From Escherichia coli (GTDB lineage: Bacteria > Pseudomonadota > Gammaproteobacteria > Enterobacterales > Enterobacteriaceae), in assembly GCF_041886205.1 (NCBI RefSeq), contig NZ_CP169029.1: a stretch of 64,000 nt of DNA. One strand, given 5' to 3'. Below the pieces are notes generated by a model. That model saw only the letters and a program-made list of their open reading frames with translations, was not told where the DNA came from and did not search any database. Made by a program: the position numbers and the translations under genes. Shown here in pieces: positions 14,078 through 39,698 of this stretch; within the stretch, counting starts at the first letter, position 1, and each line of letters starts with the position of its first letter.

Positions 14078-14350
14078 GAGTTCCCCGCGCCAGCGGGGAT
14101 AAACCGTTCGCTGGCAATCCACTCAGGAATTTCGGGAAGAGTTCCCCGCGCCAGCGGGGATAAACCGGGCAGTACCGACATGGACGGTCACCACGAGTTG
14201 AGTTCCCCGCGCCAGCGGGGATAAACCGTGTATAGCGCCAAAATTGACGAAAGACATGTTGAGTTCCCCGCGCCAGCGGGGATAAACCGGTTGTAGCTGA
14301 CAATGTAAATCATGGATTTACGAGTTCCCCGTGCCAGCGGGGATAACCAT
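14078..14350 (+). CRISPR. Type I-E CRISPR array: 5 repeats (last degenerate), 4 spacers of 32 bp
   Basis: 29-bp repeat GAGTTCCCCGCGCCAGCGGGGATAAACCG at 14078, 14139, 14200, 14261; degenerate terminal repeat gagttccccgtgccagcggggataaccat at 14322..14350. Spacers at 14107..14138, 14168..14199, 14229..14260, 14290..14321. Confidence 0.97.
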
Positions 14351-19981: not shown

Positions 19982-20245
19982 ATATTGCCGGATAAATTAA
20001 ACGCCTCTGTCAGAAATGATGGGGGCGTTTTTATTTTGCGAGCAGCATTCCTGATTTTAAACGTGAAAATAGCAGAGGGAATCAGCAGGCATAGAATGGC
20101 GTCGGGTGCTTGAGGCTGTCTGGCGTTGAGCATTCGCGAGGTTCCAGATGGACAAAAGCCCCAGGCGATATTTCTATCAACCTGAGGCCAGCGTTCGAAC
20201 CTAAGCAATTCGGATGTTAGTCTCTTCTTTGCAGGGAGGCAAGAC

Positions 20246-20398
20246 ATGCTGACAAAATATGCCCTTGTGGCAATCATCGTACTGTGTTGTACAGTACTGG
20301 GATTCACGCTGATGGTAGGCGACTCGTTGTGTGAGTTGAGTATCAGAGAACGTGGTATGGAGTTTAAGGCAGTTCTCGCTTACGAATCGAAGAAGTAG
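20246..20398 (+). CDS. Hok/Gef-family type I toxin-like small membrane peptide (50 aa)
   Basis: Unlisted small [53 protein letters not shown]: single TM helix followed by the Hok signature ...SLCE(L/I)..R.....E.A...AYES.K; GGAGG RBS upstream (gcagggaggcaagacATG). Confidence 0.7.
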
Positions 20399-32398: not shown

Positions 32399-33391
32399 AT
32401 GAGTCAGAATACGCTGAAAGTTCATGATTTAAATGAAGATGCGGAATTTGATGAGAACGGAGTTGAGGTTTTTGACGAAAAGGCCTTAGTAGAAGAGGAA
32501 CCCAGTGATAACGATTTGGCCGAAGAGGAACTGTTATCGCAGGGAGCCACACAGCGTGTGTTGGACGCGACTCAGCTTTACCTTGGTGAGATTGGTTATT
32601 CACCACTGTTAACGGCCGAAGAAGAAGTTTATTTTGCGCGTCGCGCACTGCGTGGAGATGTCGCCTCTCGCCGCCGGATGATCGAGAGTAACTTGCGTCT
32701 GGTGGTAAAAATTGCCCGCCGTTATGGCAATCGTGGTCTGGCGTTGCTGGACCTTATCGAAGAGGGCAACCTGGGGCTGATCCGCGCGGTAGAGAAGTTT
32801 GACCCGGAACGTGGTTTCCGCTTCTCAACATACGCAACCTGGTGGATTCGCCAGACGATTGAACGGGCGATTATGAACCAAACCCGTACTATTCGTTTGC
32901 CGATTCACATCGTAAAGGAGCTGAACGTTTACCTGCGAACCGCACGTGAGTTGTCCCATAAGCTGGACCATGAACCAAGTGCGGAAGAGATCGCAGAGCA
33001 ACTGGATAAGCCAGTTGATGACGTCAGCCGTATGCTTCGTCTTAACGAGCGCATTACCTCGGTAGACACCCCGCTGGGTGGTGATTCCGAAAAAGCGTTG
33101 CTGGACATCCTGGCCGATGAAAAAGAGAACGGTCCGGAAGATACCACGCAAGATGACGATATGAAGCAGAGCATCGTCAAATGGCTGTTCGAGCTGAACG
33201 CCAAACAGCGTGAAGTACTGGCACGTCGATTCGGTTTGCTGGGGTACGAAGCGGCAACACTGGAAGATGTAGGTCGTGAAATTGGCCTCACCCGTGAACG
33301 TGTTCGCCAGATTCAGGTTGAAGGCCTGCGCCGTTTGCGCGAAATCCTGCAAACGCAGGGGCTGAATATCGAAGCGCTGTTCCGCGAATAA
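32399..33391 (+). CDS. rpoS: RNA polymerase sigma factor RpoS (sigma-38)
   Basis: Start at internal ATG 32399 ([21 protein letters not shown]...), 330 aa, sigma-70 family regions 2-4; codon 33 is GAG (Glu). Confidence 0.96.
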
Positions 33392-33408
33392 GTAAGCATC
33401 TGTCAGAA

Positions 33409-33442
33409 AGGCCAGTCTCAAGCGAGGCTGGCCTTTTTCTTT
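33409..33442 (+). terminator. Rho-independent terminator downstream of rpoS
   Basis: aggccagtctc-aagc-gaggctggcct hairpin followed by tttttctttt. Confidence 0.75.
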
Positions 33443-33511
33443 TGTTTGGGGAGTCGATGTGTTTTGTCGCCTGGATAAGACATGTCAGCGTCCCACCCGG
33501 CAATCAGCATC

Positions 33512-33919
33512 CTATTTGCTCATCATCTTGCGCACCAGCTGCATAAACAGCTCCTGCTCTTCTCCACTCAAACGCCCCAAAAATTCCTCATCCACGCTGT
33601 CACCAATGGGGATCGCCGCAGCAAGTACCTTTTCTCCTTCGGCAGTCAGCCAGACAAAGCGTCGCCGCTTGTCAGCGGCGTCATGTTCACGTCTGACTAA
33701 GCCACGATTTTCCATTCTTGCCAACATTTCTGCCAGCGTTGCTTTGGTGCTGACGGCTGCTTCCATCAGTGCAACCTGTTCGATACCAGGCTTATCAGCA
33801 ATGGCGCGCATCACCGCGTACTGCGGTTTGGTCAGATCAGGTAGCTCATGCTGCCAGCGAGATGTGTGCTGCTGAAAAAGCTGTCGTAACTGATGGAACG
33901 CTTTATTTCGTAACGCCAT
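33512..33919 (-). CDS. MarR/SlyA-family transcriptional regulator
   Basis: 135-aa ORF with winged-helix MarR pattern (LTKPQYAVMRAIADKPGIEQVALMEAA...); divergent from the decarboxylase cluster. Confidence 0.85.
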   Translation of the reverse strand: MALRNKAFHQLRQLFQQHTSRWQHELPDLTKPQYAVMRAIADKPGIEQVALMEAAVSTKATLAEMLARMENRGLVRREHDAADKRRRFVWLTAEGEKVLAAAIPIGDSVDEEFLGRLSGEEQELFMQLVRKMMSK

Positions 33920-34065
33920 GTAAACTCCGGGCTAATTCTCTGCCGCTATCATAGCGGTTTTTCAGTGACGAAGAAGATGTTGTTACTTTTCAGTGCTTGC
34001 CGCGATGAAAACAGAGGCGTATTTTAATAATAACGTTCGTATACGAACAATTAAGAGAATAAACA

Positions 34066-34659
34066 ATGAGACTGATCGTCGGGATGACAGGGGCTACCGG
34101 TGCGCCTCTTGGGGTGGCATTACTGCAAGCGCTGCGTGAGATGCCGAATGTCGAGACTCATCTGGTGATGTCAAAGTGGGCGAAAACCACCATTGAACTG
34201 GAAACGCCTTACAGCGCCCGCGATGTTGCTGCCCTCGCAGACTTCAGTCATAACCCGGCGGATCAGGCGGCGACCATCTCCTCAGGTTCCTTTCATACCG
34301 ACGGCATGATCGTTATTCCGTGCAGTATGAAAACGCTCGCCGGTATCCGTGCCGGTTACGCCGATGGCCTGGTAGGGCGCGCGGCGGACGTCGTGCTCAA
34401 AGAAGGCCGCAAACTAGTGCTGGTGCCGCGTGAAATGCCGCTTAGCACCATCCATCTCGAAAATATGCTCGCACTTTCACGCATGGGCGTGGCGATGGTG
34501 CCGCCGATGCCTGCCTTTTATAACCATCCCGAAACGGTAGAGGACATTGTCCACCACGTGGTAGCCCGCGTGCTGGATCAATTTGGCCTCGAACATCCCC
34601 ACGCCAGGCGCTGGCAAGGATTGCCGCAGGCCCGGAATTTTTCTCAGGAGAATGAATAA
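34066..34659 (+). CDS. ecdB: UbiX-like flavin prenyltransferase (decarboxylase B subunit)
   Basis: 197-aa ORF MRLIVGMTGATGAPLGVALLQALRE...; flavoprotein UbiX/Pad1 family signature. Symbol from memory of the O157-type rpoS-mutS segment. Confidence 0.85.
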   Translation: MRLIVGMTGATGAPLGVALLQALREMPNVETHLVMSKWAKTTIELETPYSARDVAALADFSHNPADQAATISSGSFHTDGMIVIPCSMKTLAGIRAGYADGLVGRAADVVLKEGRKLVLVPREMPLSTIHLENMLALSRMGVAMVPPMPAFYNHPETVEDIVHHVVARVLDQFGLEHPHARRWQGLPQARNFSQENE

Positions 34660-36086
34660 TGGCATTTGATGATTTACGCAGCTTTTTACAGGCGCTTGAT
34701 GACCACGGCCAGTTACTGAAAATCAGCGAAGAGGTGAACGCTGAGCCGGATTTGGCCGCTGCTGCCAATGCCACCGGGCGTATCGGAGACGGCGCACCGG
34801 CGCTGTGGTTTGATAATATTCGCGGCTTTACCGATGCACGCGTGGCGATGAATACCATCGGTTCCTGGCAGAACCACGCGATTTCCCTCGGCCTGCCACC
34901 AAACACCCCGGTCAAAAAGCAGATTGATGAGTTTATCCGCCGCTGGGATAACTTCCCGATTGCCCCGGAGCGCCGCGCCAATCCTGCCTGGGCGCAGAAC
35001 ACCGTTGATAGCGACGAGATTAACCTGTTCGATATCCTGCCGCTGTTTCGTTTAAACGATGGCGATGGCGGTTTCTATCTCGACAAAGCCTGCGTGGTTT
35101 CCCGCGATCCGCTCGACCCAGATAACTTCGGCAAGCAGAACGTCGGCATCTACCGCATGGAAGTGAAGGGCAAGCGTAAGCTCGGCCTGCAACCGGTGCC
35201 GATGCACGATATCGCCCTGCATCTGCATAAAGCAGAAGAGCGCGGTGAAGATCTGCCGATTGCGATCACGCTCGGTAACGATCCGATCATCACGCTGATG
35301 GGGGCCACGCCGCTGAAATACGATCAGTCTGAGTATGAAATGGCTGGCGCGCTGCGTGAAAGTCCATACCCGATCGCCACCGCGCCATTGACTGGTTTTG
35401 ATGTGCCGTGGGGTTCAGAAGTGATCCTCGAAGGGGTCATCGAAAGCCGTAAACGCGAAATCGAAGGGCCGTTCGGTGAGTTTACCGGACACTACTCCGG
35501 CGGACGTAACATGACCGTGGTGCGCATCGATAAAGTCTCTTACCGCACCAGGCCGATTTTCGAATCGCTGTACCTCGGTATGCCGTGGACCGAAATCGAC
35601 TACCTGATGGGGCCAGCCACCTGCGTGCCGCTGTATCAGCAGCTGAAAGCCGAGTTCCCGGAAGTGCAGGCGGTAAACGCCATGTACACCCACGGCCTGC
35701 TGGCGATTATCTCCACCAAAAAACGCTACGGCGGCTTTGCTCGCGCGGTGGGCCTTCGTGCGATGACCACGCCGCACGGTCTGGGCTACGTGAAGATGGT
35801 GATTATGGTCGATGAAGACGTTGATCCGTTCAACCTGCCGCAGGTGATGTGGGCGCTCTCCTCGAAAGTGAACCCGGCAGGGGATTTGGTGCAGTTGCCG
35901 AATATGTCCGTGCTGGAACTCGACCCAGGCTCAAGCCCGGCGGGGATCACCGACAAGCTGATTATCGACGCCACTACGCCTGTCGCCCCGGACAACCGTG
36001 GTCACTACAGCCAGCCGGTGGTGGATTTGCCGGAAACCAAAGCCTGGGCTGAAAAACTGACCGCTATGCTGGCTGCACGTAAATAA
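34659..36086 (+). CDS. ecdC: UbiD-family reversible (hydroxy)arylic acid decarboxylase, C subunit
   Basis: 475-aa ORF with UbiD-family length and conserved blocks; start overlaps ecdB stop. Confidence 0.85.
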   Translation: MAFDDLRSFLQALDDHGQLLKISEEVNAEPDLAAAANATGRIGDGAPALWFDNIRGFTDARVAMNTIGSWQNHAISLGLPPNTPVKKQIDEFIRRWDNFPIAPERRANPAWAQNTVDSDEINLFDILPLFRLNDGDGGFYLDKACVVSRDPLDPDNFGKQNVGIYRMEVKGKRKLGLQPVPMHDIALHLHKAEERGEDLPIAITLGNDPIITLMGATPLKYDQSEYEMAGALRESPYPIATAPLTGFDVPWGSEVILEGVIESRKREIEGPFGEFTGHYSGGRNMTVVRIDKVSYRTRPIFESLYLGMPWTEIDYLMGPATCVPLYQQLKAEFPEVQAVNAMYTHGLLAIISTKKRYGGFARAVGLRAMTTPHGLGYVKMVIMVDEDVDPFNLPQVMWALSSKVNPAGDLVQLPNMSVLELDPGSSPAGITDKLIIDATTPVAPDNRGHYSQPVVDLPETKAWAEKLTAMLAARK

Positions 36087-36096
36087 GGAGAAGAAG

Positions 36097-36333
36097 ATGA
36101 TTTGTCCACGTTGTGCCGATGAACAGATTGAAGTGATGGCGAAATCGCCGGTGAAAGATGTCTGGACGGTATATCAGTGCCAGCATTGCCTTTATACCTG
36201 GCGCGATACTGAACCGCTGCGGCGTACCAGCCGCGAACATTATCCCGAAGCGTTCCGCATGACGCAGAAAGATATTGATGACGCGCCGATGGTGCCGAGC
36301 ATCCCGCCGCTGCTGGCGGCAGATAAGCGTTGA
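36097..36333 (+). CDS. ecdD: Decarboxylase small (D) subunit, zinc-ribbon-like
   Basis: 78-aa ORF MICPRCADEQIEVMAKSPVKDVWTVYQCQHCLYTWRD... with CxxC...CxxC pattern, immediately after ecdC. Confidence 0.75.
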   Translation: MICPRCADEQIEVMAKSPVKDVWTVYQCQHCLYTWRDTEPLRRTSREHYPEAFRMTQKDIDDAPMVPSIPPLLAADKR

Positions 36334-36374
36334 TAAAAAAGTGCCGGGTAGAGGCTTTGCTTTACCCGGCCTCA

Positions 36375-37031
36375 TTACTTTATTTTATAAAATGACAGCC
36401 GCCCGCTTTTCGGCGTGTCGGTATCAATATAAATCTGGTTAGCGAAGGTCTGAATGTTATCAAACATCATATGTCCAAATATAAAATAATCAGCGCCGTT
36501 TATTTGTTGTAACTCGCCATTAAGCGATTTCTGCACACGATCAACAGGCCAGAGTAATTCGCTTTCTACTATTTCTTTACCAAACTGATATTCATCACCC
36601 GGATAATCTGCATGTGCGATGACATATTTTATGTTGTCATTAATGATTTCAATAATATGTGGAAGGTGATGGAATTTCAGCAACAGATCTATTGCCTCTT
36701 GTTGCTCTGAATCATTTAAATCGAAAAACCAGTCACCACCGCTGGCAAGCCACATATTTCCATCGCCAGTTTCGAATGCATCAAGCGCCATCGCTTCATG
36801 GTTGCCTTTAACCGATGTAAACCAGGGCTGGTTTAACAGGCGTAGCACGTTAAGACTCTCCGGCCCACGATCAATGTTATCGCCGACAGAAATAAGTAAG
36901 TCTGTTTCAGGGCAAAAAGAGAGTAGATGTAAGCGGGATTGTAATAATTGATAGTCACCATGAATATCACCAACGGCCCATATATGGCGATAGTGATGGG
37001 CATTGATTTTTTGATAGCGTGTAGATGGCAT
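36375..37031 (-). CDS. pphB: Serine/threonine protein phosphatase 2
   Basis: 218-aa ORF MPSTRYQKINAHHYRHIWAVGDIHGDYQ...; metallophosphatase motifs GDxHG, GDxxDRG, GNHE. Confidence 0.93.
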   Translation of the reverse strand: MPSTRYQKINAHHYRHIWAVGDIHGDYQLLQSRLHLLSFCPETDLLISVGDNIDRGPESLNVLRLLNQPWFTSVKGNHEAMALDAFETGDGNMWLASGGDWFFDLNDSEQQEAIDLLLKFHHLPHIIEIINDNIKYVIAHADYPGDEYQFGKEIVESELLWPVDRVQKSLNGELQQINGADYFIFGHMMFDNIQTFANQIYIDTDTPKSGRLSFYKIK

Positions 37032-37136: not shown

Positions 37137-39698
37137 TTACACCAGGCTCTTCAAGCGATAAATCCACTCCAGCGCCTGACGCGGAGTCAGTGAATCCGGA
37201 TCGAGGTTTTCCAGTGCCTCGACCGCAGGCGAGGTTTCTTCCGGTACGGACAGCAAAGACATTTGCGTACCATCCACTTGCGTAGCGGCGGCGTTCGGCG
37301 AAATGCTTTCCAGCTCACGCAGTTTCTGCCGCGCACGCTTGATCACCTCTTTCGGCACACCCGCCAGCGCAGCAACCGCCAGGCCGTAGCTTTTACTCGC
37401 CGCGCCGTCCTGTACGCTGTGCATAAAGGCGATGGTGTCACCGTGCTCCAGCGCATCGAGGTGCACGTTAGCCACGCCTTCCATTTTCTCCGGCAGTTGA
37501 GTCAGCTCGAAGTAATGGGTGGCAAACAACGTCAATGCCTTAATCTTATTCGCCAGATTTTCAGCGCACGCCCACGCCAGCGACAGACCATCGTAAGTGG
37601 ACGTTCCACGCCCAATCTCATCCATCAGCACCAGACTGTACTCGGTGGCGTTATGTAAAATATTGGCGGTTTCGGTCATTTCCACCATAAAGGTTGAACG
37701 CCCGGATGCCAGATCATCCGCTGCCCCTACGCGGGTAAAGATGCGATCGATAGGTCCAATCTCGACTTTTTGTGCCGGTACATAGCTGCCGATGTAGGCC
37801 ATCAGCGCAATCAGTGCGGTCTGGCGCATATAGGTACTTTTACCGCCCATATTCGGACCGGTAATGATCAACATGCGACGCTGCGGCGACAGGTTCAGCG
37901 GGTTGGCGATAAACGGCTCATTCAGCACTTGTTCAACCACCGGATGGCGGCCTTCGGTGATGCGAATACCCGGTTTATCAATAAAGGTCGGGCAGGTGTA
38001 GTTCAGGGTATAGGCCCGCTCCGCCAGGTTAACCAGCACATCAAGTTCTGCCAGTGCGCTTGCGCTCTGTTGCAACGCTTCCAGATGCGGCAACAGCAGG
38101 TCGAACAGCTCTTCATAAAGTTGTTTTTCCAGAGCCAGTGCTTTGCCTTTTGAGGTGAGAACTTTATCTTCGTACTCTTTTAGCTCTGGAATGATGTAGC
38201 GCTCGGCGTTTTTCAGCGTCTGGCGACGCATGTAGTTGATGGGTGCCAGATGGCTTTGCCCACGGCTGATTTGAATGTAGTAGCCGTGCACCGCATTAAA
38301 GCCAACTTTCAGCGTGTCCAGGCCGGTACGTTCACGCTCGCGGACTTCCAGACGCTCCAGATAATCGGTCGCGCCGTCAGCCAGCGCGCGCCACTCATCC
38401 AGCTCTTCGTTATAGCCCGATGCGATAACACCACCGTCGCGTACCAGCACCGGCGGTGTGTCGATGATTGCTCGCTCCAGCAGATCACGCAGCTCGGCAA
38501 ACTCGCCCATCTTCTCACGTAGCGCCTGTACCGGTGCACTATCGACAGTTTCTAACTGCGCACGCAGCTCCGGCAGTTGCTGGAAAGCGTGGCGCATACG
38601 GGCCAGATCGCGTGGGCGAGCAGTTCGTAAAGCCAGACGTGCCAGAATACGTTCCAGGTCGCCGACCTGACGCAGTACCGGCTGCAACTCGGCGGTGAAA
38701 TCCTGCAATGCGCCAATAGTTTGCTGGCGCTCAAGCAACACGCGGGTATCGCGCACTGGCATATGCAGCCAGCGTTTCAGCATACGACTACCCATCGGCG
38801 TGACGGTGCAGTCGAGCACAGAAGCCAGCGTATTTTCCGCACCGCCCGCCAGGTTCTGAGTAATTTCCAGGTTACGACGTGTCGCGGCATCCATAATGAT
38901 GCTGTCCTGCTCACGTTCCATGGTGATAGAACGAATATGCGGCAGGGTCGTGCGTTGGGTATCTTTCGCATACTGCAACAGACAACCGGCAGCACAAAGT
39001 CCGCGCGGCGCGTTCTCGACGCCAAAACCGACCAGATCGCGGGTGCCAAATTGCAGATTCAACTGCTGGCGCGCGGTGTCGATTTCAAACTCCCACAGCG
39101 GGCGACGGCGCAGGCCGCGACGGCCTTCAATCAGCGACATCTCGGCGAAATCTTCTGCATACAGCAGTTCCGCCGGATTAGTGCGTTGCAGCTCTGCCGC
39201 CATCGTTTCGCGGTCGGCCGGTTCGCTCAGGCGAAAACGCCCGGAGCTGATATCCAGCGTCGCGTAGCCGAAACCTTTGCTGTCCTGCCAGATAGCCGCC
39301 AGCAGGTTGTCCTGACGCTCCTGTAACAGGGCTTCATCGCTGATGGTGCCTGGCGTAACGATACGCACAACTTTGCGCTCAACCGGACCTTTGCTGGTCG
39401 CCGGATCGCCAATTTGTTCGCAGATGGCAACGGACTCGCCCTGATTCACCAGTTTGGCGAGATAGTTTTCCACCGCATGGTAGGGAATCCCCGCCATCGG
39501 GATCGGCTCTCCCGCCGAAGCACCGCGTTTGGTCAGTGAAATATCCAGCAGTTGCGACGCGCGTTTTGCGTCGTCATAAAACAGTTCATAAAAATCACCC
39601 ATCCGGTAAAACAGCAGGATCTCGGGATGCTGGGCTTTCAGCTTGAGATACTGCTGCATCATGGGCGTATGGGCGTCGAAATTTTCTATTTCACTCAT
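37137..39698 (-). CDS. mutS: DNA mismatch repair protein MutS
   Basis: 853-aa [43 protein letters not shown]...; Walker A (GPNMGGKST). Confidence 0.97.

Follow-up and report, generated by a model that had tools for sequence, protein, structure and literature searches.

A hosA-like regulator gene and a predicted three-subunit hydroxyarylic-acid decarboxylase operon between rpoS and mutS in Escherichia coli

Results

Organization of the rpoS-mutS interval

The analyzed window is a stretch of 64,000 nucleotides of an E. coli genome, and all positions given below refer to it. Four uninterrupted open reading frames (ORFs) occupy positions 33512..36333, between rpoS and pphB-mutS. A gene for a MarR-type regulator, hosA (33512..33919, minus strand, 135 aa), is divergently oriented from three adjacent genes, all on the plus strand and in the order B-C-D, encoding subunit B (EcdB/Pad1/VdcB; 34066..34659, 197 aa), subunit C (EcdC/YclC/VdcC; 34659..36086, 475 aa) and subunit D (EcdD/VdcD; 36097..36333, 78 aa). 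The coordinates of these four ORFs and of the 146-bp divergent intergenic region between hosA and B (33920..34065) in an initial annotation of this DNA agree exactly with the ORF list. Disruption of any of the ORFs, which that annotation had named as a reason to abandon its reading, was looked for, and all four are intact. The ATG of C shares one base with the stop codon of B (TAATG; an overlap of 1 nt), while 10 nt separate the stop codon of C from the start of D, which is preceded by a Shine-Dalgarno-like GGAGAAG.

On the left, the cluster is flanked by rpoS (32399..33391, plus strand), corresponding to a gene of 993 nt that bears the rpoS annotation in a genome identical to the window here. 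At the nucleotide level it shares 99.2-99.8% identity with its counterparts in three further E. coli strains, all amino acids being unchanged, and it is followed by an intrinsic terminator (33405..33438, plus strand) consisting of a 15-pair stem and a T-run. On the right lie pphB (36375..37031, minus strand; NCBIfam PRK09968, 464 bits), encoding a Ser/Thr phosphatase and likewise annotated as pphB in the window-identical genome, and mutS (37137..39698, minus strand, an ORF of 853 aa). As the initial annotation had it, the K-12 ygbI-ygbN block is absent: both the ORF list and genome comparison reveal none of these genes in the window between rpoS and mutS. No RNA families were found in or near the cluster in an Rfam scan of the whole 64-kb window.

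Similarity to K-12-type genomes ends at 33437, which places the left edge of the variable segment at 33437/33438; the rpoS-proximal segment measures 2938 bp. At the other end, similarity to genomes carrying both the cluster and the ygb block stops at 36338 and restarts at 36376. The 37 bp at 36339..36375 form a D-pphB joint peculiar to the arrangement that lacks the ygb block and hold a hairpin (36343..36370, with arms of 11 nt) that is likely to be a bidirectional terminator between D and pphB. Collinearity of the window with O157:H7 strain F8492 extends from rpoS into mutS, so that the comparison with an O157:H7-type segment proposed earlier returns the same arrangement. With a slyA-like regulator gene, a decarboxylase cluster and no ygb (o454) block, the window belongs to the O157:H7/EHEC-1 type of the rpoS-mutS region (pattern I, Ewers 2014), one of the published patterns that bear out the description of this interval as a known polymorphic hot-spot. 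D and pphB are directly adjacent in 802 complete genomes. The possibility that the window lineage lost the ygb block in a separate event was considered and rejected, as O157:H7 has the 37-bp joint too, apart from a few base differences.

The regulator is predicted to be HosA

The divergent MarR/SlyA-like regulator proposed in the initial annotation is recovered by both domain and structure searches. The protein contains a Pfam MarR domain (E = 4.6e-12), and its residues 1-134 align to crystallized HosA (PDB 8aga; E = 1e-82) with four substitutions (A20S, I52M, A119G and N134S), none of which affects a reported ligand contact; six more HosA entries in the PDB match as well. All reported contacts to 4-hydroxybenzoate (H9, R12, H18, W22, K31, Y34 and D110) are kept, and the ligand-contact residues are invariant in 77 out of 77 orthologues. 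At each of the 77 loci in which hosA could be seen, it is oriented divergently to the operon. The product of 33512..33919 is accordingly assigned, by homology, as HosA, a predicted MarR-family repressor sensing 4-hydroxybenzoate.

The signal sensed by the regulator had been described as poorly defined. This does not agree with the literature, in which the HosA effector, its operator and crystal structures have all been published. Binding assays and crystal structures identify 4-hydroxybenzoate (4-HBA) as the effector; HosA of strain UMN026 binds it with a Kd of 4.7 uM and is thereby freed from its DNA site. Auto-repression of hosA and induction of the operon were reported by Roy and Ranjan (2016), as given in a paper summarizing that study. 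The next-best solved relative of the window regulator is the distant PcaV (E = 7e-16). Like HosA, PcaV and other phenolic-acid-sensing MarR repressors are winged-helix proteins released by a hydroxybenzoate, although the operator and the regulated pathway of PcaV-type repressors are unlike those of HosA.

Subunits of the predicted decarboxylase

The three structural genes had been interpreted as encoding a prenyl-FMN synthase, a UbiD-like decarboxylase and a small zinc-ribbon subunit, and each product indeed passes the cut-off of the corresponding NCBIfam model, with family assignments well beyond chance level. Subunit B, a Pfam Flavoprotein, scores 312 bits on VdcB (cut-off 290) and 257 bits on the UbiX subfamily model (cut-off 188), and matches E. 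coli O157:H7 Pad1 (PDB 1SBZ) over its full length (E = 7e-128). It is predicted to be a UbiX-type flavin prenyltransferase making prenylated FMN (prFMN).

Subunit C has the Pfam composition UbiD_N/UbiD/UbiD_C and scores 791 bits on VdcC (cut-off 650) as opposed to 171 bits on the UbiD equivalog model (cut-off 788). Likewise, it is far closer to the solved VdcC of PDB 7AE4 (E = 1e-160) than to E. coli UbiD (E = 5e-46). The initial annotation had made its reading depend on the conserved prFMN-binding residues of the UbiD-like protein; in alignments to solved relatives, C keeps N161, R166, H183, E225, E269 and E274. Among these, R166, E269 and E274 make up the Glu-Arg-Glu catalytic network, while N161, H183 and E225 occupy positions that we take to be Mn ligands. 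N161 and E225 correspond to UbiD N175 and E241 in the alignment, with a His nearby. The equivalent network residues of Fdc1 (R173, E277 and E282) are conserved in the Sedimentibacter hydroxybenzoicus protein ShVdcC, whose catalytic glutamate E278 aligns with E274 of window C (PMC8379154). Subunit C is predicted, on these alignments, to be a prFMN-dependent decarboxylase of the UbiD family.

Subunit D scores 121 bits on VdcD (cut-off 30) and matches the ShdD chain of PDB 7AE4. Two CXXC knuckles, made up of Cys3, Cys6, Cys28 and Cys31, coincide in position with the Zn ligands of ShVdcD and mark it as a predicted zinc-ribbon activator subunit. By gene order and by the characteristics of each of its three products, B-C-D is classified as a putative non-oxidative, reversible hydroxyarylic-acid decarboxylase.

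Control elements in the hosA-B intergenic region

A perfect 14-bp palindrome, GTTCGTATACGAAC, is located at 34035..34048, 17 nt before the start codon of the operon. Its sequence, flanks included, is identical to that of the oligonucleotide given as the HosA binding site in the PMC6261655 supplement, and it has a single match in the 64-kb window. The core of the palindrome, GTTCG-N4-CGAAC, precedes the structural genes in 76 out of 76 loci with upstream sequence, in most of them 12-25 nt ahead of the first start codon.

A candidate promoter for BCD lies at 33997..34025 on the plus strand, with a -35 element TTGCCG (33997..34002), a 17-nt spacer and a -10 element TATTTT (34020..34025). When 20 sequences spanning several genera were lined up, the spacing of the TTG and of a TA..TT hexamer relative to the operator proved constant. 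A sigma-70 consensus scan of 33380..36420 returned no promoter, the proposed pair matching the consensus at 8 of 12 positions and falling under the scanner's threshold. A promoter at this position would start transcription near 34032 and so agree with a published report placing the HosA site downstream of the start; 33997..34025 is proposed as a weak candidate for the BCD promoter.

A second conserved element, the inverted repeat GCCGCTAT-C-ATAGCGGT, whose core reads CTATSATAG, is situated at 33942..33958, beginning 23 and ending 39 nt upstream of the start codon of hosA. Most of the 20 lined-up sequences, which span genera from Escherichia to Franconibacter, have this core. As the minus strand reads TATGAT (33948..33953), the repeat may contain the -10 element of hosA. 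Both this repeat and the palindrome at 34035..34048 were called 'terminator-like' in a scan; these calls were rejected, since the former has no upstream plus-strand gene to terminate and the latter is the HosA operator.

Distribution and allelic history

The cluster is present in 2380 out of 5426 complete E. coli genomes (44%), and at least 15 genera of Enterobacteriaceae likewise have it in the rpoS-mutS interval. This shared location points to an ancestral presence of the cluster at the rpoS-mutS site in this family, with K-12 representing a derived state that has lost it. The polarity implied by the initial annotation, in which the cluster takes the place of the K-12 block, runs the opposite way. 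The association of the cluster with pathogenic lineages is a historical one; the cluster is not specific to pathogens, given its frequency among complete genomes and the mixed hosts of the window allele: the recorded sources of the twelve genomes that carry this allele (≥ 99% identity) are humans, bear faeces, cattle, pig and poultry, the remainder being without a host entry.

The window allele is rare, and its synonymous divergence from O157:H7 amounts to a dS of approximately 0.18. Relative to O157:H7, hosA shows 8 amino-acid changes, B 4, C 1 and D 2, with dN/dS values of 0.15, 0.10, 0.010 and 0.13, respectively; in C, the single amino-acid change is accompanied by 56 nucleotide differences. 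The sequence determinants of the steps proposed below are all present, intact and under purifying selection in the window.

An identity of 95-96% to most E. coli raised the possibility that the window derives from a non-coli Escherichia genome. This was rejected on three observations. Across ispD-pcm, half of all E. coli genomes, K-12 and B derivatives among them, share at least 99% identity with the window; Escherichia sp. E1V33 is more distant from the window (92%); and divergence from other E. coli is limited to roughly 33.4-39.5 kb, while the chromosomal backbone resembles that of K-12. The gene mutS falls in the same divergent block as the cluster, with a nucleotide identity to other E. 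coli of 95.9-96.2%, compared with more than 99% for rpoS.

Discussion

We are highly confident that this locus represents the known HosA-controlled, non-oxidative hydroxyarylic-acid decarboxylase (ecdBCD/kpdBCD/vdcBCD/'pad1-yclC-yclD') in the O157:H7-type arrangement between rpoS and pphB-mutS. The hosA and ecdBCD (pad1-yclC-yclD) genes of E. coli O157:H7, EPEC and UMN026 have the same order, orientation, operator and both junctions, and the published segment length of 2.9 kb agrees with the window; only the allele is unlike that of the window (∼96% nucleotide identity). The orthologous operon is found in Klebsiella pneumoniae (KpdBCD) and, in Enterobacter cloacae, as the 4-hydroxybenzoate decarboxylase. 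Other Klebsiella and Enterobacter species carry it at the same site, in the order rpoS-hosA-BCD-mutS, with a C subunit 96-97% identical to that of the window, but genera of this type lack pphB between D and mutS, and most have a second HosA-type site by the -35 element.

The three-subunit architecture is shared with VdcCD of S. hydroxybenzoicus (deposited as ShdC/ShdD, 7AE4), BsdBCD/VdcCD of Bacillus subtilis and VdcBCD of Streptomyces, as are the Glu-Arg-Glu network, the two CXXC motifs of the zinc-ribbon subunit D and, also in D, the salt-bridge residues R36 and E39. ShVdcC and window C are roughly 60% identical, as judged by eye from the alignment. In contrast, the salt bridge between R12 of ShVdcD and D173 of ShVdcC is not kept, as window D has E12 and window C has G171 flanked by lysines.

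A working model can be proposed on this basis. Without ligand, a HosA dimer would occupy GTTCGTATACGAAC, just downstream of the operon transcription start, and block RNA polymerase. Upon entering the cell, 4-hydroxybenzoate would bind at the dimer interface, contacting D110 of one subunit and H9 and R12 of the other. Ligand-bound HosA would then leave the DNA, allowing transcription of B-C-D as one translationally coupled unit. B would prenylate reduced FMN to prFMN, and C, stabilized by D, would catalyze a reversible, oxygen-sensitive, prFMN-dependent decarboxylation through its R166/E269/E274 network, converting 4-hydroxybenzoate to phenol and CO2 and vanillate to guaiacol. The literature demonstrates the ligand and the operator of HosA, operon repression, a complex of C with D and enzyme activity for proteins that are near-identical or orthologous to those encoded here. 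Decarboxylation of 4-hydroxybenzoate or vanillate, dependent on C, D and prFMN, is established for the S. hydroxybenzoicus and B. subtilis enzymes, and E. coli expressing kpdBCD of K. pneumoniae turns 4-hydroxybenzoate into phenol. Activity of the E. coli enzyme is attributed to Lupa (2005), cited here second-hand. By analogy, we infer that the window allele is active in both HosA release and decarboxylation.

It is improbable that the main job of the enzyme is instead the reverse reaction, that is carboxylation of phenol or catechol in the CO2-rich anaerobic gut, or that B and C serve as a back-up for UbiX and UbiD in ubiquinone synthesis. The enzyme family is reversible, B is a UbiX paralogue and C does match E. 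coli UbiD. Moreover, B is lost altogether in twelve related loci, implying that the housekeeping UbiX can supply prFMN there and that both systems draw on a common cofactor pool. In UbiX/UbiD and fungal Fdc1/Pad1 the cofactor chemistry is the same, with a UbiX-type enzyme making prFMN and a UbiD-fold enzyme using it, while the substrates are prenylated 4-HBA for UbiD, cinnamic acids for Fdc1 and free phenolic acids for systems of the window type. Unlike UbiX/UbiD, the latter also need subunit D, and C falls far below the UbiD equivalog cut-off while exceeding that of VdcC. It is generally known that K-12 makes ubiquinone without the cluster. Finally, both roles are difficult to reconcile with an operon induced by free 4-hydroxybenzoate, the substrate of decarboxylation, and with an invariant ligand pocket.

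Even less probable, and very much so, is that the cluster is a decaying remnant in the window lineage, intact by chance after its function had gone. The region is a hot-spot of deletion and recombination, and the cluster has been lost from 56% of the complete genomes of E. coli. Decay is nevertheless contradicted by four full-length ORFs, by the near-absence of amino-acid replacement among the many nucleotide differences in C, and by the intact operator and catalytic, metal-binding and ligand-binding residues. HosA-controlled decarboxylation is retained as the preferred reading, and the cluster is real, functional-looking and ordinary.

The locus, its polymorphism, the ligand and operator of the regulator and the enzyme mechanism have all been published before, and the rare allele is the only local peculiarity. 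To this the present comparison adds an evolutionary point, namely that throughout Enterobacteriaceae the cluster is the original content of the rpoS-mutS gap and not a 'pathogen insertion', with the HosA ligand pocket and operator conserved over the whole order. Practical interest lies in the potential conversion of 4-hydroxybenzoate from the diet or from preservatives (paraben hydrolysis products) to phenol by gut Enterobacteriaceae. HosA is already in use as a 4-HBA biosensor.

Two features of the regulatory circuit deserve mention. The second HosA-type site beside the -35 element, which most other genera carry, is absent from Escherichia, and this loss suggests that E. coli may regulate hosA itself unlike its relatives. 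A role of the CTATSATAG repeat (33942..33958) as a second control element of the hosA/BCD divergon, acting with another regulator or at the RNA level, seems doubtful, though such an element could be one undescribed so far. Beyond the divergon, HosA was originally reported from EPEC as a regulator of motility, and it may therefore have targets other than the decarboxylase operon.

Organization and identity of the decarboxylase cluster

Between rpoS (32399..33391, with nlpD also on its left) and mutS (37137..39698, minus strand), the six-frame ORF list of the window contains four uninterrupted genes: hosA, encoding a MarR-type regulator (33512..33919, minus strand, 135 aa), and the plus-strand decarboxylase subunit genes B (34066..34659, 197 aa), C (34659..36086, 475 aa) and D (36097..36333, 78 aa). 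The right flank is formed by pphB (36375..37031, minus strand), beyond which lies mutS. The B stop codon and the C start have one base in common (TAATG), and D begins 10 nt after the end of C, preceded by an SD-like GGAGAAG, an arrangement typical of a translationally coupled operon. All four ORFs lie exactly where the initial annotation had placed them and are unbroken. Its statement that they replace the K-12 ygbI-ygbN block also holds, as the ORF list, the annotation and genome comparison revealed no ygbI-ygbN in the window, the block being missing between rpoS and mutS.

The proposed combination of a regulator with a UbiX/UbiD/zinc-ribbon system was borne out by Pfam (MarR in ORF 33512..33919; Flavoprotein in B; UbiD_N, UbiD and UbiD_C in C), NCBIfam and solved-structure matches. 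The curated NCBIfam models for subunits B, C and D of non-oxidative hydroxyarylic acid decarboxylases recognize B (VdcB, 312 bits; cut-off 290), C (VdcC, 791 bits; cut-off 650) and D (VdcD, 121 bits; cut-off 30), whereas C reaches only 171 bits against the UbiD equivalog model for the ubiquinone enzyme (cut-off 788). In the solved-structure search, B matches Pad1 of E. coli O157:H7 (1SBZ) over its full length, while C (E = 1e-160) and D (3.5e-11) match chains of 7AE4, the VdcCD complex of Sedimentibacter hydroxybenzoicus, deposited as ShdC/ShdD.

The UbiD-like protein retains its cofactor-binding residues. Alignment and motif positions locate N161 and R166 of C within an NVGIYR motif, followed by H183, E225 in SEYE, and E269 and E274 within EGPFGE; N161, R166, E225, E269 and E274 align with N175, R180, E241, E285 and D290 of E. 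coli UbiD. The Mn ligands of C are presumably N161, H183 and E225, counterparts of Fdc1 N168, H191 and E233. Residues R166, E269 and E274 sit where Aspergillus niger Fdc1 has R173, E277 and E282, a catalytic network (PMC5818171) reported to be conserved in ShVdcC (PMC8379154), and E274 aligns with the catalytic glutamate E278 of ShVdcC (PMC8379154). The D cysteines at 3, 6, 28 and 31 are the same four reported as zinc ligands in ShVdcD (PMC8379154). The ShVdcD interface residues R36 and E39 are kept in D, whereas the interface salt bridge between ShVdcC D173 and ShVdcD R12 is missing: in C, the window has G171 between K170 and K172, and in D it has E12. The region around C residue 171 and D E12 could form a charge-swapped contact.

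HosA, its ligand and its operator

The hosA product aligns over residues 1-134 with 8aga, "Transcriptional regulator HosA", as well as with six other entries, and shows four substitutions relative to crystallised HosA (A20S, I52M, A119G, N134S), none of them at 4-hydroxybenzoate (4-HBA)-contacting residues. HosA of E. coli UMN026 specifically recognizes 4-HBA (ITC Kd = 4.74 uM), and in EMSA the ligand frees the protein from a palindromic site of 14 bp (PMC6261655). In the crystal structure of a 2024 preprint, D110 from one subunit holds 4-HBA together with R12 and H9 from its partner, and H18, W22, Y34 and K31 are close by; all seven residues are present in the window HosA. The view that the regulator's signal is poorly defined is therefore out of date, 4-HBA being its published ligand (PMC6261655; 2024 preprint).

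The supplementary oligonucleotide T_H (PMC6261655) includes AATTGTTCGTATACGAACGTTATTA, which is identical to the opposite strand of window 34029..34053. Within this match, the palindromic operator GTTCGTATACGAAC occupies 34035..34048, leaving 17 nt up to the B start codon, and occurs once in the whole 64-kb window. In its account of Roy and Ranjan (Biochemistry 2016), the 2024 preprint states that HosA represses both itself and the decarboxylase operon, that the operator is downstream of the transcription start, and that 4-HBA induces the operon several-fold.

We infer a BCD promoter at 33997..34025 (-35 TTGCCG at 33997..34002, 17 nt, TATTTT at 34020..34025). Across sequences from 20 species, the TTG and TA..TT hexamers keep a constant register relative to the operator; the pair is too weak to be called by a consensus promoter scanner. 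The hosA leader contains an inverted repeat, GCCGCTAT-C-ATAGCGGT (33942..33958), whose core CTATSATAG recurs in most of 20 genera-spanning sequences compared; its minus strand reads TATGAT and could be the hosA -10 element. In most non-Escherichia genera, a second HosA-type site (GATCGTRTRCGAAC) abuts the -35 element, ~57 nt upstream of the proximal operator (loci L015, L024, L026, L034, L041 and others from related genomes). Only the proximal site is found in the window (33975..33996 compared) and in two other Escherichia-type loci (L005, L006).

Proposed mechanism

In VdcCD orthologues, C is inactive by itself and binds D tightly and stoichiometrically, in a complex made up of a C hexamer with six copies of D attached; prFMN, an oxygen-sensitive cofactor, is required for turnover of 4-hydroxybenzoate and vanillate (PMC8379154). 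When expressed in E. coli, Klebsiella pneumoniae kpdBCD produces phenol from 4-hydroxybenzoate (Lupa 2005, as cited in PMC6424909); in other Klebsiella species, subunit C shares 96-97% identity with its window counterpart. The best-supported mechanism is therefore one in which HosA, bound to its operator at +3..+16, would stop transcription until it binds 4-HBA; B would provide prFMN once the operon is derepressed, and the C-D complex would use it to remove the carboxyl group from the phenolic acid. The initial annotation thus read the cluster correctly at the level of gene and function; the system itself is already published and structurally and biochemically characterised, and the questions that made the locus interesting are largely answered already.

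Conservation across species

Scanning one genome per species yielded 353 relatives of C. Among the best 80 of these, some 40-50 Enterobacteriaceae species have the order nlpD-rpoS-hosA(-)-B-C-D-mutS(-), with gaps of typically 70-150 bp before hosA and 50-150 bp after D; genera with the rpoS-hosA-BCD-mutS order include Citrobacter, Klebsiella, Enterobacter, Kluyvera, Leclercia, Atlantibacter, Kosakonia, Franconibacter, Mangrovibacter, Pseudocitrobacter, Cedecea and Pluralibacter. The cluster is therefore the original, ancestral resident of the rpoS-mutS gap; pphB and the ygb block are later arrivals in Escherichia, and the K-12 state is a loss.

In 77 of 77 loci where hosA is visible, it and the operon are divergently oriented. 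The seven contact residues (H9, R12, H18, W22, K31, Y34, D110) are invariant in all 77 HosA orthologues compared, at overall identities down to 50%, and the operator core GTTCG-N4-CGAAC precedes the structural genes in 76/76 loci with upstream sequence, mostly 12-25 nt before the first start codon. HosA ligand specificity and operator are thus conserved across Enterobacterales, including one Vibrio.

In twelve related loci, inspected immediately ahead of C (at about 6001 in each), hosA directly precedes C-D and the UbiX-like B is missing (L037, L053, L054, L063, L065, L066, L073, L074, L077, L080, L083, L084). The genera include Superficieibacter, Pluralibacter, Cedecea, Chimaeribacter, Siccibacter, Rouxiella and Erwinia; in Mangrovibacter and Rahnella, B is missing in some species and kept in sister species. 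These loci imply repeated loss of B, with prFMN coming from the housekeeping UbiX.

Distribution and junctions in E. coli

The cluster occurs in 2380 of 5426 complete E. coli genomes, chromosomal every time. D directly adjoins pphB in 802 of these 2380, as in the window and O157:H7; sampled examples of the remainder carry the cluster plus ygbN-ygbI, and K-12-type genomes have just ygbN-ygbI. These three arrangements agree with the patterns that have been published for the mutS-rpoS region (PMC4209514; PMC5491219). Similarity to K-12 stops at 33437, within the rpoS terminator, and restarts at 36376, delimiting a segment of 2938 bp, published as "2.9 kb" (PMC5491219; PMC4209514). Comparison with the O157:H7-type segment, as the initial annotation had suggested, revealed the same D-pphB adjacency and a common 37-bp joint including a hairpin (36343..36370). 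A fresh deletion of the ygb block in the window lineage is ruled out because O157:H7 shares this joint: the D-pphB arrangement is a single, ancestral one.

The region is indeed a polymorphic hot-spot, as the published patterns attest; its supposed association with pathogenic lineages does not stand and stems from the choice of the earliest sequenced strains. Twelve genomes, of 4.57-4.89 Mb, carry the window allele (at least 99% identity); some have no host on record, and the others are from humans, pig, cattle, poultry and bear faeces.

A diverged allele under purifying selection

While rpoS is 99.7-99.8% identical to that of the K-12-like strain DL21 and of O157:H7 (dS = 0.009 versus the latter), identity to all three compared strains falls to 92-98% from 33438 to about 39.5 kb (hosA through mutS), and dS reaches ~0.18 in C and hosA. 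The mosaic boundary at 33438, between rpoS and the hosA-mutS stretch, is sharp. The most diverged gene is pphB (93.8% identity, 15-16 amino-acid changes). Only 12 of 2417 cluster-bearing genomes have the allele at an identity of at least 99%; one reaches 98% and the others 96.6% or less. The backbone is ordinary E. coli, and recombinational mosaicism around mutS is well documented (PMC4209514); the divergence represents this known mosaicism, no new phenomenon, and the allele is the window's only peculiarity.

Relative to O157:H7 strain F8492, dN/dS is 0.010 for C (56 nucleotide differences, with G118S as the sole amino-acid change), 0.10 for B, 0.13 for D and 0.15 for hosA, strong evidence pointing to purifying selection on the cluster.

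Other elements

Over the regions compared, the window is 100% identical to strain wlxctx60, isolated from Japanese black bear faeces. In that strain (L001, 12473..15745), a tyrosine integrase, a hypothetical gene and an ISEcp1 transposase directly follow mutS; the window lacks this insertion and runs straight into ygbA and fhlA, so it belongs to a close relative of wlxctx60. Just downstream of cysH lies a chromosomal hok/sok-type toxin-antitoxin locus (20104..20398), comprising a sok antisense RNA (20104..20261; Rfam RF01794, 108 bits) and a Hok-like ORF (20246..20398, 50 aa). At 14139..14291 there is a minimal CRISPR array, in which the type I-E repeat GAGTTCCCCGCGCCAGCGGGGATAAACCG recurs over ~2.5 units of 61 bp.
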